The translations under genes and the position numbers were made by a program. DNA of 64,000 bases from NCBI GenBank assembly GCA_050084515.1, contig CM114271.1:46624001-46688000 (forward strand), written 5' to 3'. The notes beneath the pieces are model-generated. The model saw only the letters and a program-made list of their open reading frames with translations. It searched no databases and was not told where the DNA came from. Below, piece by piece: positions 12,896 through 48,985 of the stretch (within the stretch, counting starts at the first letter, position 1; the number at the start of each line of letters is the position of its first letter). The DNA is from Blasia pusilla (taxonomy: Eukaryota).

Positions 12896-13330
12896 CTCAA
12901 GTTTAGAATAAGGGCTATCCCCTTGAACCATGAGAAAAGAAGGATGGGAATACAACTAAACTCTTGCACCTTGCATAATGATGGGGATGAAACCTCTAGT
13001 CATTACTTGGAGTTCACCCCACATTGAGCAAGAGCATATGCTCATATTGCTAAGCTTGTCACACCAAACTTGTTCAACACTTTCAGTAGCCTTGATTCAT
13101 TGCCCAAAGTTGATGTGCTAGTAAGTAATGTCTATTGGAGATCCCTATCAAGTAAAGTAGATAGTGTGGTGAAGAGTTTCTTCGTTGACACTTGGAAGCT
13201 CCGTAGCATCACATTGTTTGTTTAGCACTCATACTATATGAGAGTGTCTCCCTCCTCTCATATGGTACCTTCTCTACTTCTTCCTCTCTCTACACCCATC
13301 CCAATCTCAAGCACCGTCCAAGGTCGCAAG

Positions 13331-13540
<210 letters not shown>

Positions 13541-13877
13541 ACATACATTTATCATATGAATCCTAAAAATCTATACATGAACGATTTGACACACCCAAAT
13601 CCTTAGATATTAAATATGCTTTTAGCTCTAAAATCTACAATTCCATTGTTTTAACATAACATTCACTCCCAACATGACTTGGATATATTTAATATGCATG
13701 CACTTCATGCTTCCAAAAAAAATGTCCAAATCAAGATACACTCAAACATAAATTTGTGATCTCTACATTAATTGTAGCCTGCTATTAATGCAAAAGATTT
13801 CATGCTCAAGACACCAACTTAGCCTTGTTATAATATATATCATGGATCCCATTCTCAAGGTATGATATCTAAAGATG

Positions 13878-24456: not shown

Positions 24457-27400
24457 ATATGAACCAAGTGTATCTACAGGAAGGAAATGCCTCACAAAAG
24501 CTATAGGATACCCTTATTATTGGCATATCTTACTTCGCCCCATTGGCTCAATGGCATCTTTGATCATATTCACTCTGTTCTTCCTTGAATTCGAAGAGAG
24601 CTTCATTGTTTCTTATTACAATATCATGATTCTCTTCTTCAAGAAGATCTGCTTCTTGATTTGAAGATAGGTAGTAGGTTAGAGATCTTCAATTGTCTTA
24701 TTTATAGAATTGCACATATTAGAAGAAACACCACCTAATATTTTCTATCAAACTTATCCATGCATGGATACACATCTATACTATTATGGGAGAGTACCCT
24801 CTTGCCCGTGCAAACACCTCTCCTTGAGCCACGTGGCGATTTTGGCTAATAAAAATTTGATTTTGGATAATCGTAGTTGTCTGCCAATCTAAGGGTTTTT
24901 TTGAGTGGGACATTTACAACCATCATAGTACTTCAAAACGGTTTTTTTGAACTTTTAAAATTTGTCATGGTGACAGTTATGATCGTAGTAAGGAGATCCA
25001 TCAATGGCAAGATCCTTTTTTTAAGCTTTTAAATTATGTCGTGCTAACCGTTATGATCGTGATAAGGTAGATCTGTTGATGACGAGGTGCTTTCCCTCCC
25101 AGAGTTGTGCAACGGTTTTTCAGGTTATCGTACTCACATCCGACTGTATTTATACCGTGCATTCAATGTAGACACTCATGACGTAGATACAATACGCACA
25201 TACTCACCCAGGTAACCATTTCCACCAACATTGCAAATTGATGTTCCCAGATGATTACAAGTTTTTGAGATGCTAGGCATATGATTGATGTACTCTAACA
25301 ACCTATCTGGTTTGTGAGCTACAACTTTCAAAGGAGTTTTCGAGTCTCCCAAAACTCACAGACTCAACGTTCCTCCACCCAAGAAGCTCGCAACTCGAGT
25401 CGCTAGGAGATCAGGCTGATTGTTCCCCTTCATATCTCCAACACTCCCATGTTGACGGTTCCTCTACATTCCCCTTCAGTTTCAATAGCACTCCCGATTC
25501 GACTTAGGTCCTCAGCATCTCCCAATTTGGAATAACTCCAGGTCCACCTCCAACTCCAGCTACGCTCTAGTTTAGTCGCCTTCTATTTGTTCGACCTATG
25601 CCAGCTCCACATTCTCTCTACAACCATGGCTTCCAACCCTTCCGATAACCAATCGAGCTACATACAAAAACATCAAAATGGCAACAAGGATAACTGCAAA
25701 GAAATCAACACATAGAAAGGGAAAGGGAAAGGCTCCATCCAAAACCACTCCATCAAAGAAATATTATGGTGTAAAGCCTGCTGATCTCAAACCTTGGGAG
25801 AGTGGAAAATAGTTTCCCATCTCTCAAGAAGACTGTGTTTGCCTGAGCATGTGGAAGAAGTCACACTTCAGAATTAGCCCACCTTTGGGGACGAGACTCA
25901 GCCCGGAGCATCCTCCAGACTTTGAAGGTGCAGTAAAGGACTCTCTCCTAGTGGGAGGAGGGCCTCCATTATAAAATAAAGGATATCTTCTTAACTCGGT
26001 TGAGGGGTTGGAAAAATAATTTCAAATCGAAGTCCAAGAAAGTCCCCAATGTTATGTAAGGGGCCCTGCAATTAAAGACCATGCACATTCCACGCAACAT
26101 CTGCAAAAAAAATTCTCAAAACACCTCATCCCAACGTTCAAGAACATTGCTCACCTTCTTAGAAGAGGTCGCCAATCCACATGAACGTGCCCATTAGCTC
26201 TACCCCACAAACCAATGGGACTAAAATAGTTCAGAAAGGGAAAAAAACATCAAGGTGTTATTATAAACATTGAGATTAGGATCTGACCAAACTAGGAGCC
26301 TAGGAGCTTCCCCATCTATAGATCGGAAAGAGTTAGAAAGATTGACTTGCATGTAACGCTTGGTACATGGAAATCAAAGCTTGGTTGGAAATGAAAACTT
26401 AGCTGAACATTACTTTGTCTGAATGTGTGGTTACTACATCAGCAACCCCCTCTCTCTCTCTCTATGTATAGAATTACTCTTCTCGAGTACTCCTGATATG
26501 AGCAACCATGGTCACCGCATTTCACCTACTGGCTCCTCTCGAGTACTCTAGCGACAAGCAATAAGGTTAGAATGTAGAGCACGGATGCGAAAACATGCAC
26601 AAGCTCGAGAGCATAAGGACACTAAGCCTTAAGTCCAAGCAGGAAAGGCGAGGAAACCTGCACGAAGTCTCAATGCTTTGTTGAGTACAAGCCCATGCCA
26701 CCCCCAAGCAATCGCAGTAACCTATGCCACGTGCAAGTAATTTCAGCAACCTTGACGAACAAACAGGAGCAGATTCCAAGGCGAGTACGTAGCAAGATGA
26801 GTCTTGAGCAAAGCCATAGCCAAGGAAGGACCAAGGGCGAGTGGGTGGGCGAGCGAGAAAAATCCTATAGCTAAAAAAGGACCGAGGGTGGGATGTTGAG
26901 AAAAATCACAGAGGATTGTCACATCTGGGTAGCCGATAGGCCGAGATTTATCGTGGATAGGGCGTAGAAGCCAGGGGACTATCTTGAGTGTAACTTTGTC
27001 CCACTGTGTCGGATGAGGTTGAGGATAGGTCCATTGTGTTAGGAACGTTGTTTCTGACAACTATCATGTTGCGGTCTTTCAAAACCGGGTGACTTGTTGA
27101 CCAGGTCATCCGCCCCTGGTAACCTGTGCGCGCAAGTTACCAGGGGGAGGGCTATTTTTAGGGGAAGAGCCTTTTGGCTCTTCCCAACCCTATATAAGAG
27201 AGGAAGATGGATTTCCTAAGCCATCTTTCTCATGTTGGGCCGTTGGAGCATCTCTCTTGTATGTGTGTGAGATAGGACTAGGGTGCTAGCATCCGGATTC
27301 CTTGATAGCACAGGGTGGACGAGGCTCGATATGCCGATCTAGATTGAGGAGTGGAGTTTTAGGCCGGGTGTGTCGTTCTTACTACTCTTTATTTTTACAT

Positions 27401-28543
27401 GGGAAAGTTGTCAAGGAGCTGGTGGGAATTTGTTGTTTGCAGGTAGGCAAGCGAGTTGCCTTGGTCGAGAGCTTCCGGAGACGCGTGTGTTGCGTGTGTT
27501 GGTCATTTTACTGTTCAGAAGGTCATGGGCGGAAGCGCTATCCGGTTTTCTCAGATTTTTGGCTGGTGCAGATTAACAGGGGACATCAGCTGAGTGTAGC
27601 AGGACGTATGGCGTCAGTTGTACACAAGTGAGGGTCGGAAAGAGGAGGAGGCGGTTGGAAACTAGGGCACGGACGGGCAGATGGCGACGCTGTGCCCCCC
27701 ACCCCCTTTTTTTGGACGTGGTTGGCGCCTACCACGCAACATGGTAACCGAGTCGGGCGTACGTGGTAGCAATCAAGGAGAGATGGTTGAGTTCAGACGG
27801 CGTTGAGTCAAGTTACATGCCGCGTGTGGGGATAAGCGGAGAAGTTTGCACGACATGATTTTCTCGGACGTGACGAGGATTTGCGAGAGTTGACGACGGA
27901 GTGTCAGTAAGTATGATGCCGACGGGTTGTCCGCATTTGTTGACAGGAGGATTGACGTATTGGTCGAGGAGAGTATTTTGTTGCGGACGTTGTCGTGTCA
28001 CATGGAGGAGTGCGTGTTGACGGTGCCGTAGGTTGGAGGGCGTGATCAGGTTACCCATTCGAGTCCCTTTTCCCGCACTTGTCGTGTGTGATTGAGAGTG
28101 TTGGGTATCGGGTAGTAGCAGGTGCGAGGTGGATGTAGTGATGGTGAGAGGTGCGGTAAGAGGAGAGGAAGAGAGGAAGATAGGAGAGAGGAAACTACCT
28201 TCAACCGAAATAGATACTTTTTTTTGAAGAGAGTTTCCGTCGGGTTGAAGAGAGGAAAATTTTTGTTTGAATTTTTTTGCACTTTTTTGTTCATATATTA
28301 AGCAGTCCCACAAATTTTTTTTCCTCTTCCATATTTTGGCAACCCCTCTGAGTCCGACGAGTTGCAAATTGCACAAAATTTAGAAAACTGAAAAATCAGT
28401 GGAATCATAAGTGTGGAACCAATCACTTTTTCCATCCAAGGTCTGGAAAAAATCTATCATTTGCCCAGGGCTGAATAGAGTTCAAGCTCAAAGTGAAGGT
28501 TGAGAAAAAAAAAAAGTACAATCTAAAACCTCATTTTGCATCC

Positions 28544-31500
28544 TCAAAGTGGTTTGTTTAAAATACTTCGAACTTCTTTGAGGGACAAAATTGGTTGGTG
28601 GATTCCTACTCCTACCTCCAACTCTCTTAAAACTACCAACAACACATAGTACATGTGCTTACAAGGGAAATACCTTTTGCCACTTGTCTCTCTTTGGACA
28701 AAGTCATCACATGAACATGTGGGAAAGCAACAGATGTGCACCACATACACCCCTGTGACACTTGAATTTACAGTGTTGTTCCTGACCCAATACATCCTTC
28801 CTATTCCATTGCCACTCAAGACATCTTTCGTGGCGATGATCTCCATTTTTGCCTCCCCAGTTGATGCAATTTGCTTTGCTCTCTCCACCGTTGGCCTGCA
28901 CATTCTGTTTCTATTCACTCCATTTCTAGACTCAAACAGAAATAATGGATTGAGATCATCCTCCTTCTCCGGGTACATGTTGACATCAATCTTGGGTTGA
29001 ATACAAAATGCGAAGGTCTCTGTAATGCGAACATGCTCCGAACTTCCCCCGTCTACGAGTTCCGGCACTTGTAAGATTGTCCACTTCGTCTTGAGTGCAG
29101 TTCATGCCTGCGGCGATGGGCCAAATCGTGGGGGTATTCCCGGGGAGCTCCAATGGCAGCCGGATAAGACTTCCGGAAAGCGCAAGATTCATTTGGGCAG
29201 AAGAAGTACTTCAATTGATGCCCGGTCCTCGTGAAACGATCAAAGGTTTTGAGTCCCCAAAACCCAGGCAATGGTCGTCCAGTCCTTGTACAGTTCTTAT
29301 TTAGGAAAGTGCCGCATGCTCTCCTAATGCCATCGATCCGCGCCTGCCAGGTGGGTCCACGCCCTGGGTTGCTCCGAGATATATGCCACCGTTTAGGTTG
29401 CAATCCACCTCCATTACCAGAATCCCATATTGTTGAACCACCCCAGTGACAAGATGTTGCGAACTTCCAGCAACGGAGGGCTTTTGACATAAAACATTCA
29501 CTGATTTTGGAGAAGTAACTCCATCACGGATTTGGGACGGGTCCGGGGTCCCCGAATACCTGGGCGGTGTAATTTCCTCATCCAAATCAATCACCGGATT
29601 CGTTCCTCGATCTTCGCCTCTTCACTTGCTCAAGTCAAGATACTTATCTGGTCTCCACGAGTCTCGTTCGGACTGCTCTACCACCATCTGTATGGGACAT
29701 CTTGAAACCCGCCCACGAATATCCCCACCTATGTGTACGTCTTGCTCGAGTGGAGTTCCAGCTACGCACCGGTTGAAGGCTTTGACATACAATTTTTCAT
29801 CACCAGATCTCACAGCCGCCCTGACATAGAGCTCGTAGATCAACGGCCCCTTTCCTTTTGTTATGCCTTTTGTGAGGAAGATATGGGATGCTGCAGACTA
29901 TAGTATTGCTCTTGCCTGGTCTTGTTGGCATGCCTCCACAAGTGAAATTCGTTGGCATGCTTGTGACGACCTCCAAGAGGAATGAACACTTTCTGCTCCA
30001 CTTGTGTTGGGGCAGAGGGCATTTTCATGAACGTTCAATCCCTGCAACGACGGCAATGTTAGAAGGGAACGAAAATAACTCTGGAGTCAAAGAAATAAGC
30101 GACCTGTTGGAACCAGATGGGTTGTAGGCCCGAGATATCCCATGAACGACTCTGCGACCCGTCGGGTCCCGACGTGTTGTAACCTTAAACCCACCTACTG
30201 CAACCCGTCGGAACCGGACGGGTTCCAAGGCCGAGGCATCCCATGAATGACTCTGTGACCCGTCGGGTCCCGACGGGTTGCACACTCGGGTTGCACCAAA
30301 CATCTGGATGCAACCCGTCGGTTTCCGTCAGGTTGCACCCTCGGGCAACCCGTTGGTTTCCGTCGGGTTACACACTCGGGCAACCCGTTGCATCCGACAG
30401 CTTGCTTGGTTTCTTGGGTTTGAAATCCATATAGTTCCCATGCTTCTCACCCTGAGCTACAACTTTACAAACAATTCTCAGCGTGAGCTTGACAAGACAA
30501 AATAGTGAACTCACCTGCCGCATGAAGTTTCCCCATTGTCTCATACGTAGAGTCTACCAACTCAACCAAGAGCACAACTCTTTGTACTTCCCCTCAATCG
30601 CATGCTTCCTCCACCACCCATGAAGTTCTTCCTGGCATTCCATGGCCTGCTTCAAGGTTTTGATGTCCTTGCAGCGTTGGAGTAGAGTGACATGCTCTGT
30701 CCTCTTATTCTCCTTGATGCAAGATTTGGTGTACCGGGTCACAGACTGTTGCCAATGGAAAGCATCCGACCTTTCCCTCTCCGGTTGAACCTCTCCACCC
30801 CAGAACACTTCCCGGATAGCAATCCACCCAGGTTGTGCATTGTCCGCCATGAACCCATAAATTTCCGGAGGTGGCCTTTTGTTTTCCTTCACCACCTCCA
30901 ATAAGAGTAACCAGCACATCTTCAAATTGCCAACGTCTTCTGCCTTTACTTCACAGACAAATATAATTTTGAGTCCCTTCTCCACATGGTCATAAACGTG
31001 AGCACCCATCGTCAACCATCCGTTCAACACTCAATAGCAAATATCAAACCTTACTCAACTCACGTAAAGATCTTCCCCTTCCCTCATTCGATCTATAAGA
31101 TCGAGGCCACTCGACGGACCTGTGGTTGACATTTTGAAGACATAGGCCCTGGATCCCTCGCCTCCTTGGCCCATGAACCGCCATCTCGAATGAACGGAAA
31201 TCTGGAGTTGGCCTTGATTCGGCGATGGCATCCATTTCGCCGTCTTTCCATCCGTAACTCGTATTTGACGCAAAGCAAATTCGGAAGCATTCAGGATCAG
31301 CGAGAAATGCGAGATTCTCCTGAGTTGTTTCTCCTCAACCGTAATCTCGCTTGTCCAGGGATTCCAAGCAATTTTTCACAAATTTGTGATGCCGTTGTGA
31401 GCTTGATCACTCCGGGCTTTGAACCCGGAGAGTTTGTGTAGACCTCGGCTACTTTCTTCGCCACATCCTCCTTGATGTGTCTTTGAATTGCATCGGTCAC

Positions 31501-32341
31501 AGGATGAGTGTGGGAGCCAACATGGAGTGCCAGCCTTGTATACTTTGACGTGGAGCCCAAGTCGTGGACAATGAAAAATATGTATGCAGGACACGCTCCA
31601 ACGCATAAGGGCGATGCCTGACAATGAGGATATCGATGGCCTCCAGGCGGTATGGTGGCACCGACCGCGTATGGAGTTTCTGCATTCTTGGGAGGGAATT
31701 GTGACGTATTGACTCGCCTGTTGCGCTCTAGATACGGGCATGCTGGACTTCTACACTCCAAGGCTCCCACGCATTGGCGGCGGGAGACAATCCAAGGACC
31801 ATCTGGAATTGAAGCACTGGTCCGTTGAAGCCTGCACCATCGATGATAATCGATTTTCGTCCCATACCCTTCAGCGCCCTCCATCCTTCTTTTGAGCAGG
31901 AGCAGCAAGTGGAGGCAACTCAAAAATGCAATTACCATCATACGTGGGCGGCAGCTCGTCGACAAGAATGCGCTTGAACATTTTCAAGGCCAGAGACGAA
32001 AGCAAACTATTGCCGGATACTCGCAAGAGGAACGAGTAGGCGGACAGAGGGCCCGACTGGTGTCCGACAGATCCACTGAGGTTGATAACATCCGGAATCT
32101 CTTCAGGAAGAACAACATTGTTACAAGCGTCGCGGTTGGAGTCGGCCGATCTGCAGAGCTTGGAGTTGCAAACGAGAGCTCGGAGCACTAGGAAATTCTA
32201 GACCGTCTACTTGGGAAACAGACGAATTCAAGGGCAGGCCGTAAACTCTGTATTGACCATTTGGTAGAGGTAGGAGATTCCATACTTTACGGTCTGAGGT
32301 CACTGGCTGGACCGTCTCACCTATTATGTCTTCCGTACCAT
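28544..32341 (-). pseudogene. MULE transposase: GCM/WRKY-like zinc finger, DDE core, SWIM finger; one intron; stops and frameshifts
   Basis: CVGALEC..C..C..C..HVGSHTHP (GCM-like); VRFDIC (D1); FMADNAQ..AIREVF..DAFHWQQSV (D2 + CxxH-like). Intron 30514-30042 joins NFMRQ|GLN..CPNTSGAESVHSSW (E). C-terminal CSCDDF..PCKHMYYV is a SWIM finger. Confidence 0.85.
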
Positions 32342-35300
32342 CCACCCTAACATCTTTGGATACAAAGATGGTTCCAATTTGGAGAAGAAATCAAGCATGT
32401 AAAAATTTTCATCCACTACTATGAAAGACTCACGAGCTTGGGGTCGAATGATTTCTGATTGAGGAAGGGCCTCGGATGATCGCCACAAGTGAGCTTAACA
32501 TAATTATCCATTCCAAGAAGATTCCAACGAGAGGAGACGAGAATGAGAATGAGAATGAGAATTTTTAATTTATAGTGAATAGGAAAAGATACACGACATG
32601 ATTTTTTACTGACAAGATGAATTCGGTGGATGACATTGTCTGACACAATGGATCCAATTCTGTAACACATTCAATTCTGTTGCAATATGTTACCGGATTT
32701 GGGAAGCAAAGGGTTGCGCATCACACTTCTATTCCGTCGGAGTCCTGGTAACTGAAAAATTACCCGAAGCTAACCGAAGCCTGCAACCCGTCGGCATCGG
32801 ACGGGTTGCACACTTCTGCTAAACATTGTCGAGGCGAGCAACCCGTCGCTCTCCGACGAGTTGCTCGGATACCGCTCCTTCTTGCCCGAAGATGCCGGAG
32901 GCGTGCAAACCGTCTGTTCCCGACGAGTTCCGCGGGTGCCTCACCTTTTTGCCCAAAGACGGCGAGGCGTGCAACCCGTCGCCCTCCAACGGGTTGCGCA
33001 AGGGCCTCGCCTTGTGGTGCAGCCAGCCGGACTCCGACGACTTGCACGGGAAGCCCTCGTTCTTAACCCTTGATGAGGGAAGCGTGCAACCCAACGGTCT
33101 CCGACGGATTGCCCAAGATACGTCCCGTTCCCGTCCCAAACACGGCGGAGGCGCGCAACATGTCGGTCTCCGACGGGTTGCGCGGGTACCTCGCGTTCTT
33201 TTCCGAAGACGACGGAGGCGCTCAACCCGTCGGTCTCCGACGGGTTGAGCATGCACGTGGCGACGTACCCAGGATGGCGGAGGCGCGCAACATGTCGGTC
33301 TCCGACGGGTTGCGCGGGTACCTCGCGTTCTTTTCCAAAGACGACGGAGGCGCTCAACCCGTCGGTCTCCGACGGGTTGCTCGCGACGCGGGTAACGCGT
33401 ACCCACGATGGCGGAGCCGCGCAACTGTCGGACTCGACGGGTTGCCATTTTTCACGTCCGGACTTCCGTAACATCCGGCACGTCGCCGTCGAAAAGACGA
33501 TGGGACCCAACGGTTAGCCCAACGGCTAGAAAAGTATAAATAAGGCAGAAATCGCTCATTTCCGGTTTCTCATTTTGCGATCTTCATTCCTCACTCTCCC
33601 GCGTAGCAGCTGATCAAATACGTAGGGGCATTTCACACGGCGACACATCGCGAGTCGATAGGAGGGAACAAGAGCGAGACTGTTCGACCGAACGACAGCG
33701 AGACGCTTCGACTGAGCGATCGCGGGACGATTCGAGCTACCCATCAAGGCGATTCGAGCTCCCCATCTCGACATCAGCAAGGCGACTGATCAAGGGATTC
33801 GTCGTGGACAGTGGAGGCATTTCCGGAAAAAATGACGAGGAAAAAGTCACAAGCCAACAAGTCTGGGAGCTTCATTCCGAAGTCCATTAGGACTCCTGCG
33901 TCAGCTTCTCCTGGGTTCGGCGAATGAAATTAGGCAGCAGGAAATCGAGGAGCGGGAAAGGGAAGCGGAGATGCACAACCAAGTGCTTCTTGCGAGACGT
34001 TTTCAAGAGGTGCTAGATAAACAGAACGCAGAGGCTGAGACGTCGCAGGCCTTGAAGAAAAGGATCGCCAACGAAAAGAGAGAAAAGAAGCGTCTCGACG
34101 CGTCGGTGAGGAGGGCAGAATTGGCTAAAGCGAGGAGGGAAAAAGCGATAGCCATTGAAGATAGCCCAACCCGTCCAACCGCAAGTGTTGAGATGCGGGA
34201 AATGTCCCCCACGAAGTCCGGGGACACAATCAACATAGTGGAAACGCCAGAAGTTGAAATCGATGACGACGAGGTCATGAGGACCGCCAGCGTGGAGATG
34301 GTGGACATGGCCGAAGAAGCCAAAGAGCGGTCATTCTTGACTCCAAGCCCGGCGGAGGACATCTACCTCTATCGGATCGACGAGTTCCCAGTTGATTTTC
34401 CAACTTCTGTCTCAGACAAGTTAGCTGGTCAAAAAACCGACCCCATTTTTGAGCGGGTAAGAGAGGATCTGGGTTTTTTGAATTATGTGAATTGCAATTT
34501 ATTGGGAATTCAGTGTAGCTTATTCATCTTGTCCCGGTTCTGACAGGTGGTAAAGCAGATGGCACTCATGGAGGGCCACAACGCCCCGAGGATTCCACTC
34601 TGCCAATTGCGGACAATGGAATACGTCCGCGAAATTCAGTCGGACGAGGACATCGCGAAGCTTAAACAATCGGCGGCGACAACATCCTACGTCGATAGCT
34701 TTCCTCCCTTCTATGTTCAGCCTTACGACGAGCATGGAACCCAAGCTCTGGTTACAGAGGAGGACTTGGAAAAGCTCGACACATTCTGGAGGATGCGAGA
34801 CCAGGATTTCGAAGGCAAGTTGAGGGCACGGAATTCATTTGGATGAGGAATCTACATTTCTTCATCCGGGATGGAAATCACAGAGTTCATGGCGTGGACC
34901 AAGTTTGCGGAGGAGCGGCCCAACTCATTGGAGGCACATTTTGCGTGAAGGCGGTGGTCCTTCACCCATTCCCTCATCACATGGCGACGGTGGAGATGGC
35001 AATGCATGCCATGAACACGTGAGTATCTTTAACATTTACGCAACTCGCCGGAGTCCGACGAGTTGCTTGATTGATGAATGGGTTAGGTTTGTTTTTGCGA
35101 AAGCAACTCGTCGGACTCACGGGTTGCTCGACCGCACGCTTTTTTGGATGTTTTTTAAGAATGCAACTTGTCGGACTCCGACGAGTTGTTTGATTGACCA
35201 CAGATTTAATTAGTTTTTGGCCCAAAGCAAACCGTCAGAGTCCGACGGGTTGCTCGACTCGCCGCCTTGTCAGGATGTTTTGAAGAATGCAACTCGTTGG

Positions 35301-38300
35301 ACTCGACGAGTTGTTATTGATCGACGCAGTTTAGAAGGTTTTTTCCCCAAAGCAACCCGTCGGAGTCCGACGGGTTGCTTGCCTCGAAACTGTTTTTGGC
35401 CGAAATCAACCCGTCAGAGTCCGACGGGTTGCTTTGGGATAAAAACCTTCTAAACCTGCAGTCAGTCGAACAACTCGTTGGAGTCCGACGAGTTGCATTC
35501 TTCAAAAAACATCCTGACATCCTGTTGTGAGTCGAGCAACCCGTCGGCCTCCGACGGTTTGCTTACCAGGCATTAGCAAATTTGAATGCAATCCGTCAGA
35601 CTCCGACGGGTTGCATCATTTAGCTCGTTGCTAGAATCCGACCTTGAGCTGTGACGACCCGTCGGAGTGCGACGGGTTGCATGAACCCATGTAATTTCCT
35701 GACGGGTTGAGTTTGGATGTGCAGGATTGTATCGGAGGGGAATGTCACCCACCACTGGATCCAGGACTGCGATCGGGTGAGGAAGGTGCTTACGACGCAC
35801 CCGGGAGAGTACAAGGGGTTCTTGGGCGATGCCCTTGTAAATCAGATGCTTGCAAAGGGTGCTCAGATTAAAAAGAAAACTTGGGCAAATAAGTTTATTT
35901 CCCAAGATGCAGCCATAACCATCCTTTTGCTGGTCGAAGATACAGGCCGAAAAGAAAAGCGCTCCACCGAGCTGGAGCGGAGGGAGAAGGTATCTGCGTC
36001 TGAGCGCGCCAAATTCATCCAAGCTGTAGTATCTGCAGCAACGAAATACATGGCGAGCAAGATGGAGCGATACATCAGCATTCTCAACCCCGAACTTGGT
36101 CCGGAGTTCTACAAGGAGCCAAGGCGATTATCAAGCGCCCGGTGAAAGGGATGAAGATCCGCGTGGTCGGATTGGGGAGAAAGTGTCCCGGATCGCGTGC
36201 ATCGGTTTGCGTTTCCGGCATAAGCGAGTTTAGGAGGATCCAAGCGATGAAAATCAGTCTCGAGGGCTCGTGAGGCTCGAGAAGAGGGCGGCACACCATC
36301 CCTGGTGTGTCCGATCCGATGATCTCGCACGGCTACGCGAATGGTTGTTCGGGGGCGCGTTGCGGGTTATCGTGAAGTCCGTCGGGGACGGTTTGCAAGC
36401 GGAGCTCGAAGATTAGAGCCCATCCGGATGAAGCAAACCTTGAAAGTTCGGAGATTTCGAGGTTTGGCTGACGACATCCGGACAAGCCAACCAAAACCCA
36501 GGATTCAAGACCATGTTCAAGGTTTGCGTCCTCCTCTCAGAGCTTGACGAAGAAGTAGAGGGGAACAAACGGGATCAAGCGAAGAAGAAGCGAGATCTAC
36601 AGGAGCAGACGGCCGATTCTATTCGACTAAAAGTCGCCCAAAGGATGGTCTTGTGTACCTCGTCAATGTAAGAATGCAGTGCGTGGGGAAAATAACCAGT
36701 AGCCTTGAAATTGTGGGCTTCGCCACGGATGCAGAGACATTCTCCATGTACGACATGGAGATGGGGCAAAGACATGTCCGATTGGGAGGTGGAGAATTGC
36801 CCCATTTGGCTCGACTTCAACGACCACTCAAGACATCACCGATAAGGATTTACGAGTGCTTCATGATACAAAGTGGCCTCACGACAAGACGACATCCCCA
36901 ATTTTGTCAAACCAAGACTTCTTGGAGGAGATGTAGAAGAGCAGCCCACGAGACAGGTGAGTTGGCTTCCAAGGTCCGCATGACCAAAGACAAATCCACG
37001 GCGGGTGTCAAAGGCAAGGCGAGGGGAGGGAAAATTCAGAGGCCGAGTCTTCCCAAAAGAGAGGTGAAGATTCAAGGCAGAGGCGGAATCGTCCCGGACG
37101 AGCGGGAGAGAGGGTCGGACCAGGTCCTCGGCGAAAAAAAAACCCCACCGAGTCCGAGGTCATAGAGACCCGACAAGCCGTCCGCAGACTAGGGAGAAGC
37201 GGCGAGAGGTGCGCGGGTTGTCCCAAGGAGAATCTGATCCATTATCCTCGGAAGACACAGACAAACAACGACCGGACAAGCGTCCTCCTTCGATTCACTT
37301 TTTCTTGGATAAGTCAAGAGCTTGATTCTCAAGCATCGACACCAGCCATCGGAAGCAAAAGCATGGACGGAAGCTCCAACGAAACGGCACGCTGCCTGGA
37401 CGGTGAATGGAGTGGTCGAAGAGGTTGCGGTGGATCTCTTGATCTCCGATCTGCCATCGGGGTTGCGACTTTGGGGCGAGAATCCGTCGGACGAGGTACG
37501 TAAGTGGAATGTGCCGCTCTCTTATGACCAGATTGCGCTTTTGTTCTCCTTTGCAGACGCCTATCTGAGTGAGAGGGGCTGCTTCTTGGTGTTGACTGGA
37601 GGGAGCGAGGACGAGCTCTTCAACCTCCAGTGCGTCAAGAGGTGGCTAAAGTGGAGGACGGCGCAATCGTGGATCATAAAAAACGAGTACCCACTCCGAT
37701 CCGCGACGAGTCAGATTCGGGTAAGGCTCAATTCATGTCCTATAATTTCAATTATATTTTAATGATGTGTATAATGAGTGTTCATCTCCGTTGAGTGAGT
37801 ATAATGAATGTCAATCTGGGTTTTTTTTGTCCGTGAGCAACCCGTCGGAAGGCGACGGGTTGCTGGCTTAGAGCAGCCCATGCTCGGCTGAGAGCAGCCC
37901 ATGCTCGGCTGAGAGCAACCCGTCGGCTTCCGACGGGTTGCATCTTTCCCACATACATAAGGAAAACCGCGTTGTACCTGCAATCCGTCGGAACCCGACG
38001 GGTTGCAGTTGCTTTTGGTTTTTCCCAGGTGCTTTTGGTTTTTGGATGCAACCCGTCTGATAGCGACGGGTTGCTCTCAGGCAAGCATGCCCTGCTCTAG
38101 GCCAGCAACCCGTCGCCTTCCGACGGGTTGCTCATGGACAAAAACAACGGGGCCCGACGGATTGTTTTAGTCCCTGACCAACCCGTCGGAAGGCGACGGG
38201 TTGGTCCGGGACAAAGCAACCCATCGGACTCTGACAGGTTGATCCAAAGTCAGTTATTGAAAATGTTCTCAAGCCGACTTCTTTAGTTTTTGACATTGTT

Positions 38301-39835
38301 TCCAACGTGCTGATTTACAGATGGACCACTCCTACGTGTACTGCTTCGTTCGGCCCGAGCACAATTTCCACGTGTTCAAGATCCAGGATCCTGTGGATTC
38401 ATGCTTAGATGGGTATAGCTTAGATAGTTTGTACAATTCCCCCCCGGGAATTTACATGCAAGACAGTACCCCACTTCTGGGAGGAAGGAAAAGTCGCCGA
38501 CCCGATGCAACGCTCATCGAGCTCGCTCAAGGCCGGGTGACTTGGTGTTCGACTTAGTGGGACTTTCAGGGGCAAGTATCAAAGGCGCCTGGCAAAGTGG
38601 CAGGAACATTCTCTGCCTCGAGGGAAGGCAGGAACTGTTTGACCTTTGCAAGGAGGAAAAGGAAGAATACGAAAGGCTCGTTGGGGCGTACAACTCTCCA
38701 CCAAAGCCGAGAGCTCCGGTTCCAGAGCCACCCTTGGTAGTGACTCCATCGTCACTTCCAACGATTCCAAAAATTGGGAGGGCAAGGCCGAAAGTAATTT
38801 TGCAAGAACTCTCAGACGATGACGAGTGAGTTCAAAGAACTCAACGACCCAGCTTGACTGCAGCGTTTGGAGTAGGGAGTTTTTTGATGATGAGGCAAAA
38901 GATTTCATAGAATAGATCAAATGTACACTTCCGAGCTTTTTTCGGATGATATAAAGCAGAAGATTTTTTCGAACGATGGTGGTGCTTGTAAAAGTTTGCT
39001 GAACATTTTTTGTCTTTTCGAATGTGATTGTCTATGTACTCCGCGGACTTCTATTTTTCAACCCGTCGGATTTCTCCTGCTTGCAACTTTTCACTTTTTG
39101 ACCACTGCACCCTTTTTACCACTTCGAGGCAACCTGTCTGATTCCGACAAGTTGCCTGATTGGACTCTTTCCCTGTTGGTCTAACTTAAGAGGCAGTCTG
39201 GTGGGCTTCTTCCCTTGGCACCTTCCCCTCAACTCGTAAAGGCAGGCGTAGGCTTCTTTTCTTCTCTCAGACGTTTTGGATTCCTACTACCTGTGCGATT
39301 GCCATAATGGTATTACCGGGGACGGAGCAGACATTGATAATGGATGGGTGTCACATTGCAGAGCGTACAAGGTATACTGCCGAGGAAGGCGGTGGGACTC
39401 GAAACAGGTTACATGGGACCGTTATGGTGTACCTAGGGGGGGGGCCAAGGCTCTCAAATTCGCCAACATTTTCGATCCCCGTCTACAATCGGCCTGAGGA
39501 GCCACTTGTATCCCAGGACATTCCTTTGGTATTGTCATCGAGGAGAGTTAGGAGTAAATTTGTAGATGACGAGGCTGAAGAAATCATAGACTAGGTGAAA
39601 TGTACATTTCCGAGGTTCCTTCGGAGGTAATAAAGGACGAGATTTTTTCAACCCATAATGGTGTTTGTAAAAGTTTGCTGGAATATTTTTTGGACTTGTG
39701 GATTGTGTTCTTTTAGCTACTCAGAATTACAATTCTGCAACCCGTATGATTCCGACGGGTTGCAACTTTTTGCTTTTTGCCCACTGCAACTTTTCTACCA
39801 TTTCCAGGCAACCTGTCGGATTCCGACAGGTTGAC
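30150..39835. repeat. Dispersed 25-bp palindrome CAACCCGTCGG-N3-CCGACGGGTTG, >30 degenerate copies
   Basis: Clusters at 30150-30410 (transposase intron), 32780-33450 (intergenic/promoter), 35040-35710 and 37840-38245 (introns of the accessory gene), and 39058-39835 (downstream). Confidence 0.93.
33833..38829 (+). pseudogene. MULE accessory gene: charged N-terminus, ParB/Srx-like motif, beta-class N4C/N6A DNA methyltransferase-like C-terminus; 3 introns; frameshifted
   Basis: GT-AG introns 34457-34546, 35019-35724 and 37721-38320 keep frame. FFIRDGNHR at 34858-34884; VDLLISDLPSG (37430-37462, DPPY-like motif IV); YLSERGCFLV; LIEL-SRPGDLVFDLVGLSGASIKGAWQSGRNILCLE (38512-38622, motif X/I-like). 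Confidence 0.7.
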
Positions 39836-42800
39836 TGCTTGAGTGATCGGACTCTATCCTGGTGAGACCAACTTCTGACGCATTGTGGCGGGCTTCTTGA
39901 CTTTTGGGTCGTTCCCCTACATTCGTCAAACCAGTTGTAGGCTTCTTTTCTTGTCTAAGATGTGCAGGATTCCTACTACCTGTCGGATTGCCATTTTGGA
40001 TTCCCAACCTGTTAGATCGTCGTGGGTGCAGGGTGGAAGAAAATCACTTCTAAAAATCTTTCCTTTCTTATGGTGAGCTTTCTTACGGGTTGGGAGGGGT
40101 GCAGCTTCTCGGTTTCTCAGCCTTAGGATCTGATGTGTTCACATTTCACAAAGTTGGTCTTGAGCAGACACCATTCATAACCAACAGAAAGTTGGTTATG
40201 GGGCAATTTAGGGGAGGCCATGATGCAGGCAACAATCCCTGCAAAAAGAGAGGTTGGCATCCGGGTGGTCCTCCAACAAAAATACCAAGGGCACTGATTT
40301 TTGTTGACCGAGACAGGGAATGTTAAGAAACTTAGGCTCACATGGAGAGTGATGGAAAAATGTTTAGGGTGGTCTTATGATGTCTCCTTTTTCTCGCCCC
40401 CAGGAAAGAGGAGGTTTTTTTAGGGCCAAATGTGGACCACTAAATACTCTCTTCTAAAGATTTCCTGAATTTGAAAGCAAACAAAAATTTCAAATATGTC
40501 AAAAAGTTTTGAAGAGAGGAGGCGGATTTGGCCCTTTTTTTTGAAGAGAGACTCTCCTCTCATCCTCTCTTCCTCTCCTCTCTTACTCTCTCCTGCCAGA
40601 ATACCAGCCCCCGTGATGGTGACGAGTGTAGACTCTTTTCATGTGTGGCATGTGGTGGATATACGGCGGTTTCTACGTAGAGGTTGCATGTATGACCCGA
40701 GAGTGTCGCTAGGTTAGGTGAGTCAGTTGGAAGGCTCATGGTGAGGCCGAGTGTTGAGTGTGCGTGAGGCCGGGTATGTCATCACAGGATTGATGTTAGC
40801 ATAGGTGAGCTAGTGAGGAGTGTGGGAGACTCTCGGTGAGTCTGAGTGCTTGAGCGGATGAGATAGGGTTTTCATCACTGCGTTCTTCTAGGGTTTGGAA
40901 GAACGGGGTAGTGCGAGGAGTAGTAGTGGTGTGACACGGACTGGAGTGAGATACCGAGGGATTACAAGTGAGGAGCTACCTCGACATCCATCCGTGGCTT
41001 GATCGTCATCACTAGACATCGGGTCTGGTGACAAGATCGCAGACGGAGGCAATATCACTTGGCAGGAGATGGACGACAAGGGCCATCGGGGCATGCGTCG
41101 TTTCTCAGGTACAGTGGGCACCATCGCCTTAGATGATTTTATCCACGAGTCCGACACGTGGTGCGACTTCCAGGAGATACGGACCCTGACACGGTTAAAC
41201 CCTTTATGGCATGGAAGGGGTTGTTCCAGCACTTGGAGGGTCCTCCAATGGATGACTACATGGAGTTTTGATCACTATATTCAGTAGAGATCAATGCCCG
41301 GAGGATGTATTGGGCTCCACGGTATGTGTCCAGTAGTGGTCGCGAGGCATATGATGGGATCGTGAGAGGAGAGAGACCCACACCATCAGGCCGGAGACTA
41401 GATGGAGAGGAGGGCAGTGAGATAGGTGATGTGGCAGAGACCTTTGGTGGTAGAGGGCCATCCAGCTTCAGCCCCACAGTGGAGTTCTTCCGACAGTTGG
41501 GGAAGAGCTACCAAGGCATACACACCGACAAGATGAAGAGTCTTCAAGATTTTCAGCGACAATCGGGTGAGAGAGGCATTCATGCGCATGAGGAGGCTAA
41601 TCATTGTTACGTATGGAGTGACTGAGGCGCAGTCAGTCCAGTATTGGTACGGGATTCTAGACGGAGAGCTACGGAGGAGAGTCCGAGATGCGGTGCTGAT
41701 TCACACAGCAAAGCCCACATTGAAGGTGGTCTTTGAGTTGTCTGAGCGTATTGAGCTCAACATGAGTGAGGAGCACGTAGTGACCGCTAGATTTTCTCGA
41801 GAGTCAACGGGTCCACGAGCAACGGTGACCCCACAGTTGCCACAGCGAGCACCAGTACCACGGGATTGGGCCAGTGTGCCCAGAGAGCAGGTCGGGTATC
41901 GTGAGCCTATGAGGCAACGACCCGTACCTACATATGTTGCCCAACACTGACCGATGTGGTCTTGTTGGACGTGTGGAGGGGCCCATAGGCAGAGAGACTG
42001 CCCACAGCATGGGAGAGGACCATGAGCGCCTCCGATTTCTCAAGAGCCACAGAGGATGGCCCCACCACAGCACTAGTGTGACTATTGCCACAGATATGAT
42101 CACACTAGGGATAGGTGTTTTGACCTTCGCCGAGAGGCACGTTCAGAGGTAGGCCGAGGATCTTGGGGCGGTCGTCCTAGAGGAGGTCAGGGAGTTCTTC
42201 CAAGACGTGGTGGTAGAGGATCACAACCAGCCAAAGGAGATGGAGCAGGAGCACCAGAGCCGTCACTTCTCTCACGCATCGATCAGTTGGAGCAGAGGAT
42301 TGTTGCCATGACGATGATGCAACTTAGGGAAGGCACAAAGCTGCGAGCAGCTAGTGTGACTCTAGCTTCTACCTCTTATCCTGACCTGGGTCAGGATCTC
42401 GCTAGTATGGGGTTTATGTGTAGTGCAGCCCAGGTTGAGGCAGCTACAGTGGTGACTCGGGGTGCTGCGAGAGGCATCGAGTCATTGAGAGGTGGAGTTG
42501 AGATTGATCCACCAGAGGGGATTGATGGGTGGCAGGCCAGGGTTCCACAGTCATTCATATTGTCGGAGGCACTACACACACCATCGATTGTGCCTCGATG
42601 ACTAGTGGTGCCTATAGCTCAGGTAGGTACGTCGACATCACGAGAAGTTGGAGTGACAACTCCTATGCCGACTCGAGTGGAGTCAGTGTCGACCATAGTG
42701 TTGGAGGTGGCCACCAGAGTGAGTGAGACTCCACTATTTTCCGCCATAAAGTTGGCGACGTTGGGAGTTGGACCAGCTGAGGTGTTCCGGCTGGCCGCCA

Positions 42801-43784
42801 CATTGTGTGAGCGTGGAGAGATGTATGCTTCTTGTTTAGGGGTAGTTGACGAGGTGGTGGACTTGCCTTGAGAATCGATGCTCAGAACGTTCCCCACAAA
42901 GTCATGGCATGCGGCGGCGGCGAAGTTGGTAGATATGCCAGGTTGACCGGCCACAGAGCGAGCAGTGGTGACACTTGGAGTAGTGTTATTGGATAACCAA
43001 GCTGGATTATTTTGCTTGGTTAGTCCCACGGGGACGGTATACCACCCGCAACGCATCCTACTTGATTTGGGAGCACAACCCTTGATGTTAGGGAAGGCGT
43101 CATCTTTAGGGTTGGGGTTACGGAAGGCCGACATTGAGCCTTGTCCCTTCCAGATACTGATCTCGATTGGGGGCGTGTCACCCACGTAGTATATGACTCG
43201 ACAGGAGATAGTTGTCAGAGTCCAGCCAGAGCATGCGACGGATAATGTTGTGGTGCGTACATGTGCGATTACCACACCAACTGAGTCGTACGATGTGTTG
43301 GTGGGGAGTATAGTGTTATATCCCCTAGGATTCATCCTTGTGGGAGGAGACCGTTGCTTATCGGCCAGGGTGGCAGTCAAGTGACGAGCGGAGGAGTCAG
43401 TTACCTATGCAGTTTGCGGGACAAGGTGGTCGATCACGAGGCGAGTGTGTGACCACGTTGGCAGCTTTCACAGGTAGTGTTAGCTGGCCAAAAGAGTTGT
43501 TGGAGGGGAACGCACATGCGGAGGATGTCCTAGTAGCGGATAGTCCCACGGAGAGAAAGGCCATGGTGGGTGTCTCTTCCCATGTTGGCGAGACCTCTTC
43601 ACCATTGTGGGGTACGACTCCGGAGCTACAGAGGAGTGCCGACGATCTCGTGAGGCAGGCGTGGAGTCATGCCTTTATCCCATAATAGCGCGAGTTAGGT
43701 GGTGATCAGGCTTCTGGAGTGAAGACGTTGACCCCACGGGATACCACACCTGTTGTGTGGTAGTGTCCAGAGGAGGGTGTTAGG

Positions 43785-45478: not shown

Positions 45479-48400
45479 CTTGATAAGCAACGGTCTCCTC
45501 CCAGAAGTCAAGGATGAATCCTAGGGGATATAACATTGTACTCCCCACCAACACATCGTACGACTCGGCTGATGTCGTAATCGCATGTGTGCGCACCATA
45601 GTACTATCCGTCGCATGCTCTGGCTGGACTCAGAGAACAATCTCCTCTCGAGTCATATACTGAGTGGGTGATACGCCCCCAATCGAGGTCTGTATCTGGA
45701 AGGGACAAGGCTCAATGTCGACCTTCCGTAATCCCAACGCTAAACACGCCGCCTTCCCTAACATCAAGGGTTGCGCTCCCGAATCAAGTAGGACGCGCTG
45801 CGGGTGGTATACTATCCTCGTCGGACTAACCAAGCAAAATACTCCAACTCGGTTATCCAGTAACACTACTCCAGGTGTCACCACTGCTCGCTCTATGGCC
45901 GGTCGAGCTGGCATATCTACCAACTTTGCCGCCGCCGCATGCCATGACTCTGTGGGGAACGTCCCAAGCACCGGCTCTGAGGGCAAGTCCACTACCTCCT
46001 CAACTACCTCTGAACAAGAAGCAATCATCTCTCAACGCTCACACAACGTGGCGGCCAACCGGAACACCTCAGCTGGTCCAACTCCCAACGTCGCCAACTC
46101 TATGGCGAAAAATAGCGGAGTCTGACTCACTCTGGTGGCCACCTCCAACACTATAGTCAACACTGACTCCACTTGAGCCGGCATAGGAGTTTTCACTCCA
46201 ACTCCTCGTGATGTCGACGTATGTGCGTGAACTGTAGGCACCGCTGGTCGTCGAGGCACCATCGATGGTGTGTGTAGTGCCTCCAACAATGTGAATGATT
46301 GTGGAACCCTGGCCTGCCGCCCATCGGTCCCCTCTGGTGGGTCAATCTCAACTCCACCTCTCGATGGCTCGGTGTCTCTTGCAGCATCCCGAGTCACCAC
46401 TGCAGCTGCCTCAACATGGGTTGCACTACACATGAATCCCATACTGGCGAGATCCTCACCCGGGTCAGGGTAAGAGGTAGAAGCTGGAGGCACATTAGCT
46501 GCTCGCAGCTCCATGCCTTCCCTAAGCTGCATCATCGTCATGGCACCAATCCTCTGCTCCAACTTATCGATGCGTGAGAGAAGTGTCGACTCTGGTGCTC
46601 CTGCTCCATATCCTCTGGCTGGTTGTGGCCCTCTACCACCACGTCCAGGAAGAACTCCCTGACCTCCTCCACGACGACCGCCCCCAGGCCCTCAGCCTAC
46701 CTCAGGACGTGCCCCTGGAGGTGCCCGTCGGCGAAGGTCAAAACATCTATCCCTAGTGTGACCATATCTGTGGCAATGGTCACACTGGTGCTGTGGTGGG
46801 GCCATCATCTGTGGCTCTTGAGCAATCGGAGGCGCTGGTGGTCCTCTCCCATGCTGTGGGCAGTCTCTTTGCCTTTGGGCCCCTCCACACGTCCAACAAG
46901 ACCACATCGGTCAATGCTGGGCAACATATGTAGGTGCGGGTCGTTGCCTCATAGGCTCACGGTACCCGCCCTGCTCTCTAGGCACACTGGCCCGCTCCGT
47001 GGGTATGGTGTGCTTTCGGGCACCTTTGTGGGATCACCGTCGCTTGTGGACCCGTCGACTCTCGAGAAAATCCAGCGGTCACTACCTGCTCCTCACTCAT
47101 GTTGAGCTCAATACGCTCAGACAACTCAAAGACCACCTTAAATGTGGGCTTCGCTGTGTGAATCAGCACCGCATCTCGGACTCTCCTCCGTAGTTCTCGG
47201 TCCAGAACCCCGTACCAATACTGGACTGACTGCGCCTCAGTCACTCCAAAGGTAGCAATGATTAGCCTCCTCATGCGTGTGAATGCCTCTCTCAGACTCT
47301 CACCCGATTGTCGCTGAAAATCTCAGAGACTCTTGACTTGTCGTCGTGCAGACGCTGGTAGCTCTTCCCCAACTGTCGGAATAACTCCACTGTGGGGCTG
47401 AAGCTAGGTGGCCCTCTACCACCAGAGGTCTCTGCCACATCGCCTGTCTCACTGCCCTCCTCTCCATCTAGTCTTCGGGCTGGGTCTCTCTCCTCTCACA
47501 ATCCCATCATATGCCTCGCGACCACTAGTGGACACATACCCTGAAGCCCAATACATCCTCCAAGCATCGATCTCTACTGAATATAGTGATCGAAACTCCA
47601 TGTAGTCATCCATCGGAGGACCCTCCAAGTGCTAGAACAACCCCTTCCATGCCATGAAAGGGTTGAACCATGTCGGGGTCCATATCTCCTGGAAGTTGCA
47701 CCATGTGTCGAACTCCTGGATAAAATCATCTAAGTCGATAGTCCCCACTGCACCCGAGAAACGACGCATGCCCCGATGCCCCATGTCGTCCATCTCCTGC
47801 CAAGTACTACTGTCTCTATCTGTGATCTCATCGCCAGACCCAATGACCTGTGATGACGATCCAATCACGGATGGATGTCGAGGGAGCTCCTCACTGGTAA
47901 CCCCTCCATATCTCACTCCACTCCGTGTCACACCACTACTACTGCTCGCACTACCCCGTTCTTCCAAACCCTGGAAGAACGCCGTGATGACAAACCTTGT
48001 CTCACCCGCTCAAGCACTCAGACTCACCGAGAGTCTCCCACACGCCTCACTAGCTCACCTATGCTAACATCAATCCCGTGATGACATACCCGGCCTCACG
48101 CCCTCCAACCTGCTGCACCGTCAATATGCACTCCTCCACATGATATGATAATTTCCGCAACACAACACTCCCCTCGATCAACACGGGGCGCGAATGGGCT
48201 CAACGCCTTGCCCCCTCAATATGCACTCCTCCATATGCGTGCCTACACAACACTCCCCCTAACCCTAGAGCGCTTGCGCCGACTTGACCCGGCGACCCTC
48301 GCCGCAAGCTCTAGCTCTTCTTCTCCTGGTACTCTGACCTTCCACGAGCTATAAGACGCGTTACTCCCGCCAACACAACTGCGCTACACCTGTTGCTTTG

Positions 48401-48985
48401 TCCCCATCAATCCCAGAAAATCTGAAAAAAATCTTGAAAAAAACACAAAACGTCGCCTCCGCCCACGGCCTTCCAAACAGAAAAATGACACACATCTTTC
48501 TCATGTTAAAATAAAGAGTAGTAAAAACGGCACTCCCGGCCTAAAACTCCACTCCTCAATCTACATCGGCATATCGAGCCTCGTCCACCCTGTGCTATCA
48601 AGGAATCCGGACACTAGCACCCTAGTCCTAGCTCACACACATACAAGGGAGGTGCTCCAACGGCCCAACATGAGAAAGATGGCTTAGGAAAGCCATCTTC
48701 CTCTCTTATATAGGGTTGAGAAGAGCCAAAAGGCTCTTCCCCTAAAAATAACCCTTCCCTTGGTAACCTGCGCGCACATGTTACCAGGGGCGGGTGACCT
48801 GGTCAACAAGTCACCCGGCTGTAAAAGACCTCAACATGAAAGTTGTCAGAAACGACGTTCCTGACACAATGGACCTATCCTCAACCTCATCCGACACCGT
48901 GGGACAAAGTTACACTCAAGATAGCTTGCTGGCTCCTACGCCTTATCCACGATGATCTCGACCTATCGGCTACTTAGATGTGACA
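45479..48985 (-). mobile_element. Inverted, truncated third copy of the same retroelement (5' repeat, gag, protease)
   Basis: 48985-48496 is the reverse complement of 26917-~27406. 48100-45482 is the reverse complement of ~40762-43362 (ORF 45630-46028 has LLDSGAQ; CDHCHRYGHTRDRC knuckle). Confidence 0.9.

Follow-up and report, generated by a model that had tools for sequence, protein, structure and literature searches.

Arrays of a 27-bp palindrome in the non-coding DNA of a putative Mutator-like element of Blasia pusilla as candidate binding sites for an element-encoded protein

The DNA analysed here is a window of 64,000 nt from Blasia pusilla (contig CM114271.1; all coordinates are those of the window unless a locus is named), which contains an inserted element of 12,465 bp (28148..40612) with a transposase gene, an accessory gene and many copies of one palindrome. 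The element sits in an older repeat and was delimited by an empty-site joint, 28137->40613, that skips 12,475 bases and leaves 10 letters fitting both sides; this joint was found in one contig each from the runs X7 and X8 (two related organisms) and in one RNA read. The 10 letters form the target-site duplication (TSD) GTGATGGTGA, whose left copy (28138..28147) and right copy (40613..40622) were checked letter by letter. GA-rich imperfect terminal inverted repeats lie close to both ends, the left arm (28159..28188, + strand) beginning at the 12th base inside the left end and the right arm (40552..40581, - strand) ending 31 bases before the right end. The left arm agrees with the reverse complement of the right one at 28 of 30 bases (score 50 vs 18.9 ± 2.3 in 200 shuffles), which is weak evidence because the sequence is of low complexity, and the extreme ends do not match, the inverted match sitting 11 and 31 bases inside them. 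Mutator-like elements (MULEs) have TSDs of about 9-11 bp, a range that includes the 10 bp found here, and from this duplication together with the similarities of the transposase we read the element as Mutator-like.

The transposase gene (28544..32500, - strand) has exons at about 30515-32500 and 28544-30041, with a SWIM-like finger in 28544-29101, and is interrupted by an intron of 473 nt (30042..30514, - strand, GT..AG) whose borders fit the reading frames and the homologous exons on both sides. The accessory gene (about 33968..38829, + strand) was recognised from its open reading frames, and its C-terminal half resembles N6/N4-methyltransferases. It contains a short intron of 90 nt (34457-34546, GT..AG, fitting the frames), intron 2 of 706 nt (35019..35724, GT..AG), which joins the reading frames, and intron 3 of 600 nt (37721..38320, GT..AG, phase 0), which splits the methyltransferase-like domain; all three are on the + strand. 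One RNA run gave 286 reads on the stretch, mostly 90-95% alike and so from other copies, and no splice joint passed the threshold among them; the intron borders were therefore placed by reading frame, GT..AG and homology. The window copy has an in-frame TAG in the transposase gene at a place where relatives have W, and the accessory gene is frameshifted near 34830, within 36145-37313 and near 38530. With this stop codon and these frameshifts, the window copy of the element is dead.

The palindrome has the form CAACCCGTCGG-N3-CCGACGGGTTG. Allowing up to 3 mismatches it was found 32 times in the window, 31 times within 30155-39833 and once at 28340, and not at all in any of 100 dinucleotide-preserving shuffles. 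The 11-nt half-site, with up to 1 mismatch, matched 56 times (0.63 expected), all matches lying in the range 27919-39833. A looser palindrome scan (up to 6 mismatches, spacer of 1-6 nt) gave 45 candidates, compared with 0-2 in 20 shuffles; 40 were accepted, 36 with a 3-nt spacer and 4 in which the spacer is just 1-2 nt, apparently through small deletions, and five (27905, 34167, 35683, 38140, 39059) were discarded as lone half-sites or chance-level matches. When the 36 copies with a 3-nt spacer were aligned, the symmetry was seen to reach one further base on each side (G...C), which gives a 27-bp palindrome with the consensus G-CAACCCGTCGG-ANT-CCGACGGGTTG-C. The information content is 1.46 and 1.61 bits per position in the two arms, 0.45 in the spacer and 0.16-0.17 in the 25-nt flanks. 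A preliminary description of this DNA had reported more than 30 recurrences of constant geometry with variable spacers and flanks, and both the 32 matches and the low information of the spacer bear this out.

All 40 accepted copies lie inside the TSDs and none is centred in the exon model. Cluster 1 (30100..30404, 7 copies) makes up 64% of the transposase intron. Cluster 2 (32784..33444, 11 copies, with periods of 67 and 132 bp) is placed between two TATA-like boxes, at 32562-32577 (- strand) and 33534-33545 (+ strand). Cluster 3 (35041..35679, 11 copies, with higher-order inverted duplications) occupies 91% of accessory intron 2 and cluster 4 (37838..38241, 7 copies) 67% of accessory intron 3. 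Downstream of the accessory-gene stop follow cluster 5a (39059..39154), with one half and one full copy, and cluster 5b (39738..39833) with 2 copies, and a single palindrome stands near the left end (28340..28364) alongside a lone half-site at 28237-28247. By compartment this amounts to 11 copies from TATA box to TATA box, 7 in the transposase intron, 11 and 7 in accessory introns 2 and 3, 3 after the stop and 1 at the left end, so that 29 of the 40 are found outside the TATA-to-TATA region, in introns or in 3' or terminal non-coding DNA. Given that 44% of the element is non-coding, the chance that seven clusters would all miss the exons is about 0.003. Arrays account for 64-91% of each of the three long introns, and the lone palindrome-free intron is the one of 90 nt.

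The preliminary description had placed the motif in introns of both genes (7 + 18 copies in our count), in the divergent promoter (11) and downstream (3), and had seen it neither in exons nor outside the TSDs; this distribution was recovered, and the palindrome is specific to the element within the window, with 0 full copies outside it. The interval given there, 30150..39835, covers most copies and misses those at 30100 and 28340 and the half-site at 28237, all inside the element. The sole trace of the motif outside the element is an exact lone 11-nt half-site at 27919-27929, about 210 bp beyond the left TSD and with no partner arm. No exact palindrome was found in metagenome contigs, prokaryote genomes or viral contigs, in a search that could find perfect copies only.

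Start-to-start spacing within clusters ranges from 35 to 78 bp (median 64), and the palindromes are therefore without fixed phase. Tandem periods of 35, 67, 125 and 132 bp and higher-order inverted duplications of 102, 81 and 61 nt are present in the arrays. Copy-number joints between family copies were found at 33302->33435, 35377->35565 and 30317->30354; one 132-bp unit of cluster 2 is absent from an X8 contig, and the joint 35377->35565 (cluster 3) was found in an X7 contig. Tandem duplication thus partly explains the arrays within clusters. Between clusters, in 510 pairs of copies, the 25-nt flanks are 30% identical (random level), the spacers 37% and the arms 83%, the last value being inflated since copies were picked by arm match, a bias that leaves the missing flank similarity unaffected. 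With unrelated flanks and conserved arms the shared module is about 27 bp rather than a longer repeat unit, and simple tandem duplication alone does not account for the spread of the palindrome, in agreement with the preliminary description. In the arms, 87 of 864 positions depart from the consensus, 42 of them by C>T or G>A. This is about the decay expected for an old copy, and the palindromes were therefore probably near-identical when the element inserted. The 3' region of the accessory gene is itself tandemly duplicated (38880-39305 and 39559-39994, 441 nt aligned, 76% identical), with two palindromes included; cluster 5b lies in the second of these segments.

As single strands the palindromes form stable hairpins (-10 to -15 kcal/mol). 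However, pairing of the two arms within a copy is 84.4% compared with 84.0% in shuffles, and 174 of 500 shuffles equal or exceed the observed value, so nothing maintains pairing as such. The arm covariation that the preliminary description had suggested checking thus did not rise above controls, and selection on the hairpin was rejected, arm pairing being no better than the column composition predicts. Changes on both sides do occur in 9 cells (4.5 ± 1.8 expected; 5 of 500 shuffles reach 9). They are the CTCG/CGAG and CCTG/CAGG variants, C-to-T at the CCG of each arm in 11 and 10 of 72 arms, and are explained by a few variants multiplied through local unit duplication or by parallel deamination. 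Folding energies of -398 and -330 kcal/mol (z = -23 and -22) were obtained for the RNAs of introns 2 and 3, with the units pairing across the array into long stems. Such long duplexes follow from any array of identical palindromes and are likely to be a cost, as a trigger of small RNAs, or a second function.

The element family is highly repeated in organism A, with a summed contig depth of 10^3-10^5 over the element compared with 47 in the left flank. The ratio of observed to expected CpG is 0.92 in the element, 0.93-1.34 in the palindrome arrays and 0.61-0.65 in the flanking repeats; the higher values in the element and the arrays may reflect less methylation-driven decay but are confounded by age. 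Eight of the RNA reads have a loose end at 29219 followed by letters that resemble, by eye, 30404-30432, i.e., 29219 joined to about 30405. These reads look like transcripts of a deletion derivative broken at the border of palindrome cluster 1.

Among metagenome contigs, a profile search gave six loci. In one of them, L001, a contig of 2,078 bp, the transposase core is 51% identical to that of the window element, and an intron of 317 nt is present at the homologous place, between a WGNYIRL exon and a NLPIHDSAL...GAESVHSS exon; the window counterpart of the post-intron exon reads GLNVHENAL...GAESVHSS, and the pre-intron motif is WGNxxR(L/Q). The palindrome in the L001 intron is a different one, of 26 bp (arms of 12 nt around a 2-nt spacer), and is present 3 times; its half-sites matched 6 times compared with 0.1 in shuffles. 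As the intron position is shared but the palindromes differ, the intron must predate the present arrays, and an introner-type origin of the introns was rejected on the same ground. An intron array and a palindrome size common to the window element and L001, with the sequence replaced, provide the strongest argument for a co-evolving binder. In L001 the middle palindrome is lengthened to a perfect 60-bp palindrome with 29-nt arms (1172-1231 of the contig).

Three further contigs, L003-L005, are near-identical and represent one lineage, with a transposase 33% identical to that of the window. They were downgraded from a second comparative case to a suggestive one, being a single lineage without the homologous intron. 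At 3534-3581 of L003, and at the same place in L004 and L005, GAESVHSS is replaced by AKSVHSS (VKSVHSS in L004). With the presumed catalytic E changed to K, these may be inactive or domesticated copies.

Six homologues of the transposase (P0001-P0006) are 41-49% identical, with tblastn coverage from 32149 to 30461. The nearest named Atlas clusters are MULE/SWIM (0.83-0.88), which serves as a lead only, and the SWIM finger PF04434 was matched with E=0.011 and 15.7 bits, under the 19.6-bit Pfam cut-off. No significant Pfam family, including the MURA-type DDE transposase PF10551, was obtained with the window exons or with P0001, P0002, P0003 and P0005, and a comparison with PDB sequences gave no meaningful match. 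The strings FMADNA...DAFH and GAESVHSS, the latter in the exon that comes after the transposase intron, fit the D..D(2)H..E pattern of the superfamily.

For the accessory protein, weak but convergent similarities suggest a methyltransferase-like domain. Its last exon matched PHROG DNA methyltransferase families with E=8e-4 and 9e-3 and 46 phage records (best E=0.03), among the matches listed nearly all DNA (adenine) methylase, and the exon before the last intron is close to Atlas PF01555 clusters (0.90-0.91). A full HMMER search with this exon gave 3 homologues, P0007-P0009; a word-based homologue search with the N-terminal half of the methyltransferase part gave none. No Pfam match was found for the accessory exon pieces or for P0007-P0009, the domain being split by an intron and, in the window copy, also by a frameshift. 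The catalytic motif of N6/N4 DNA methyltransferases is (D/N/S)PP(Y/F/W). At the position of DPPY all four sequences have D-[L/I]-P-x instead (DLPS in the window, DLPT in P0007, DLPK in P0008 and DIPN in P0009), with the D and the second P invariant, and in the window copy motif I also deviates, as judged by eye. The accessory protein is therefore probably derived from a methyltransferase without being an ordinary amino-methyltransferase, and deposition of N4-methylcytosine or N6-methyladenine at the palindrome is doubtful because DPPY is replaced in 4/4 sequences. The active methyltransferase of the preliminary description thus finds no support here.

The same holds for the ParB part of that description. 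No ParB domain was found in Pfam (at E<=0.01 and at E<=10), PHROGs, NCBIfam, PDB sequences or a word-based homologue search, and tblastn of the ParB candidate against 50,697 phage records gave no ParB, only hypothetical proteins with a best E of 4; a frameshift inside the candidate stretch of the window copy reduces the sensitivity of these searches. The sole trace, seen by eye in 34548-35018, is a DGNHR string with an upstream pattern resembling the ParB/sulfiredoxin GxxR box.

We give a probability of roughly 0.5 to the reading that the palindromes are lineage-specific binding sites for a dimeric protein encoded by the element, similar in architecture to the sites of the VANC proteins of VANDAL transposons. 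Two independently conserved half-sites flank a spacer that is not conserved, which suggests a dimeric binder. The 11 copies between the TATA-like boxes are probably untranscribed and hence point to a role in DNA. The palindromes would act as operators, i.e., cis sites, for a DNA-binding protein of the element, either the accessory protein or the transposase. They may have built up wherever the sequence was free to change, in the shared promoter, in introns of either gene, in the 3' parts and towards the ends of the element, and local tandem and inverted duplication would then have multiplied them. Dense local sites could let the protein recognise its own family, and the bound protein could activate transcription, counteract silencing or help to assemble the transposition complex, in the way of VANC proteins on VANDAL transposons. 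We infer the binding, the identity of the binder and the effect of binding; the anatomy of the element, the exclusion from exons, the arm-specific conservation, the change in copy number and, in a related element, a palindrome of the same size but another sequence were observed directly.

Beyond this, we tentatively propose a MULE clade with operator arrays, a possibility that we regard as somewhat doubtful. Palindromes of 26-27 bp, fixed in size and lineage-specific in sequence, would saturate the element's promoter and the introns of its genes, change in step with a dimeric binder that the element encodes, possibly a pseudo-enzyme descended from a methyltransferase, and give each lineage a private code for self-recognition and against silencing. 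The palindrome swap between the window element and L001 might then record an arms race against silencing by host small RNAs, a response that the arrays would inevitably provoke through long double-stranded RNA.

Several known systems resemble these arrays in part. In En/Spm, 12-bp subterminal sites, some in inverted pairs, are bound by the element-encoded TnpA. This regulator is also a subject of a preprint by Sasaki et al. (2026). Many copies of a short element-specific site, some as inverted pairs, are common to both, bound by the element's own regulator there and presumably here; in contrast to the subterminal En/Spm sites, the arrays here avoid the outermost 90 bp (left) and 779 bp (right) and fill internal introns. 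The parS site is 16 bp long without a spacer, and several palindromic copies are bound by a ParB dimer. Palindromic sites in several copies, bound by a dimer (a feature of parS that is presumed here), are the likeness, whereas the present site is 25-27 bp long with a 3-nt spacer and has neither a detected ParB domain nor a partition context.

The architecture matches that of VANDAL21 with VANC21, where motifs are found in introns and in intergenic and terminal non-coding DNA, form dynamic tandem repeats and differ between related elements (PMC5735166; PMC10398659). As in that system, a member of the Mutator superfamily with an accessory gene concentrates an element-specific motif in its non-coding parts, the tandem repeats change in copy number and related elements have different motifs, here seen for the one related locus L001. 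The VANC-like architecture suggested in the preliminary description corresponds fairly well to what Hosaka et al. (2017) report, and the L001 palindrome adds support. The present site is a palindrome of 25-27 bp, whereas that of VANC21 is YAGTATTAY, an asymmetric motif of 9 bp whose arrayed copies share one orientation (Hosaka et al., 2017, PMC5735166); no VANC homologue is detectable here, the accessory protein being methyltransferase-like, and binding and hypomethylation, which have been shown for VANC, are only conjectured for the present element. The AtMu1 transposase is able by itself to bind cognate copies and to activate them (Sasaki et al., 2026 preprint), so that here transposase and accessory protein are equally good candidates for the binder.

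In the giant Plavaka transposons of Bostrychia, which carry the accessory genes PAG2 and PAG3, one gene encodes a PF01555 methylase and another a protein with weak likeness to ParB (HHpred E=0.29). The authors propose that the ParB-like accessory protein binds and modifies its own element via tandem inverted repeats, and they also report homologues of the accessory genes from Mutator elements of a second red alga (bioRxiv 10.1101/2025.02.11.637652). Both systems combine a DNA transposon and a methylase gene of PF01555 type, or here a gene with weak similarity to that type, with tandem inverted-repeat arrays, which in the present element lie within and beside the accessory gene. The red-algal elements belong to the CACTA/Plavaka type, have three accessory genes and keep their arrays next to PAG3, whereas the present one has a MULE-like transposase, a 10-bp duplication, one accessory gene and arrays in the introns of both genes and in the promoter; the arrays were compared by description rather than by the sequence of their repeat units. 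In the literature searched, paper supplements excluded, nothing closer was found on Mutator-like elements with ParB, methyltransferase or palindromic binding sites.

Some of the observations weigh against binding sites. The window copy is dead and hence itself not under selection, and the comparative support comes from one short contig, L001, of about 2 kb. L003-L005, in which the homologous intron is missing, have one perfect 27-bp palindrome and degenerate copies, and no accessory-gene homologue was detected in the 13-15 kb of this lineage. Neither element protein yielded a significant DNA-binding domain in the searches described. No copy lies less than 90 bp from the left end or less than 779 bp from the right end, and palindrome-free ends are odd if the binder is the transposase acting there. 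The selection of copies by arm match, mentioned above, has to be counted here too. Finally, palindromes of 24-28 bp as such are not rare in the rest of the window: outside the element there are 35 (12-nt arms, up to 2 mismatches) compared with 6-10 in shuffles, all of different sequence.

This last excess also speaks for an alternative that we consider unlikely, though not strongly so, namely that the arrays are a structure-prone palindromic minisatellite without binding function, which originated a single time as a hairpin-forming unit, spread by slippage, template switching and unequal exchange and survives outside coding sequence. It would be in keeping with the tandem periods and inverted duplications, the copy-number joints between family copies, the deletion derivative that breaks at the edge of cluster 1 and the stability of the hairpins. 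However, it fails to explain why one 27-bp core occurs in seven compartments with unrelated flanks and why a different palindrome of the same size fills the same intron of a related element, and since arm pairing is present only at the level of column composition, the hairpin as such is not maintained. If instead the arrays act as RNA, their long duplexes would feed small-RNA pathways, for self-limitation or host silencing, or affect splicing. The 29 copies in introns or 3' regions, the extreme folding of the RNAs of introns 2 and 3, low-level reads of the fitting strand over both genes (from family copies) and the report that VANC target regions are also targets of RNA-directed DNA methylation (Sasaki et al., 2023, PMC10398659) agree with this. 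Yet 11 of the 40 copies precede both genes, lying between the TATA-like boxes; folding of this kind comes with any array of identical palindromes, and compensatory changes are not in excess. We judge such a role improbable as the explanation of the arrays; an RNA-level effect could co-exist, as a cost, with element-encoded binding.

A strict ParB-parS system, in which a ParB-domain protein loads at the palindromes, possibly in dependence on cytidine triphosphate, and spreads while a fused methyltransferase marks the DNA, appears very improbable to us. The DGNHR string with its upstream pattern, the methyltransferase-like C-terminal half and the red-algal preprint, with transposon accessory genes of weak ParB homology beside inverted-repeat arrays, are what recommends it. 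Against it stand the lack of a ParB match in any of the profile, PDB, homologue or phage searches made, a site of 25-27 bp unrelated in sequence to the 16-bp parS, and the D[LI]Px in place of DPPY in 4/4 sequences together with the deviant motif I. We give equally little credit to binding by a host transcription factor that the element recruits as an enhancer. The densest regular array does lie in the shared promoter, and in the neighbouring, unrelated host repeat the TATA-like box is surrounded by 28-bp palindromes, three in number and all different (27116-27229), with a mirrored copy near 48674-48830. But 29 of the 40 copies lie well away from the promoter, within introns or 3' DNA, no full copy exists outside the element within the window, and the wholly different palindrome at the same intron in L001 fits a co-evolving, element-encoded binder better.

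The surroundings of the element are repetitive as well. The transposon interrupts the left copy of a long repeat, of which an uninterrupted inverted copy lies at 45509-48953. The two copies (26950-43340 and 45509-48953) form a giant inverted repeat in head-to-head arrangement, with 74-95% similarity and about 2.2 kb between the arms, and a gag-like zinc knuckle is encoded near 42077. About 230 bp beside the insertion site (28046-28137 and 40623-40761) are present in the window and in the X7 and X8 empty-site contigs and missing from the other host-repeat copy; the junction of this segment is marked by a 6-bp GCGTGA overlap, and it may be an older small insertion, or the other copy may have suffered a deletion. 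Long arrays with an 8-10-bp period occur at 13230-13667 and from about 58038. Scans of the window for Rfam families and for tRNAs gave 0 matches each.

The idea that a ParB-like accessory protein binds the inverted repeats of its own transposon is already in print for the red-algal Plavaka elements (bioRxiv 10.1101/2025.02.11.637652). New here is the comparative case of L001, whose homologous intron has a palindrome of its own. Should the palindromes have no binding function, the locus is an ordinary structure-prone minisatellite in an old, dead transposon copy. If they are binding sites, the element would link to the untested suggestion made for the giant red-algal transposons, and it would be a natural case of binding-site arrays enlarging introns roughly 5- to 8-fold (473-706 vs 90 nt in the same element). 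With so long and unusual a site, the system can readily be followed from genome to genome and lends itself to testing. Experiments have so far demonstrated sequence-specific self-recognition of transposons in no more than a few families of Arabidopsis (VANDAL/VANC, Spm TnpA and AtMu1), and real binding sites in the present element would mean that the same strategy exists in a different Mutator lineage, with a methyltransferase-derived accessory protein and a long palindromic site.

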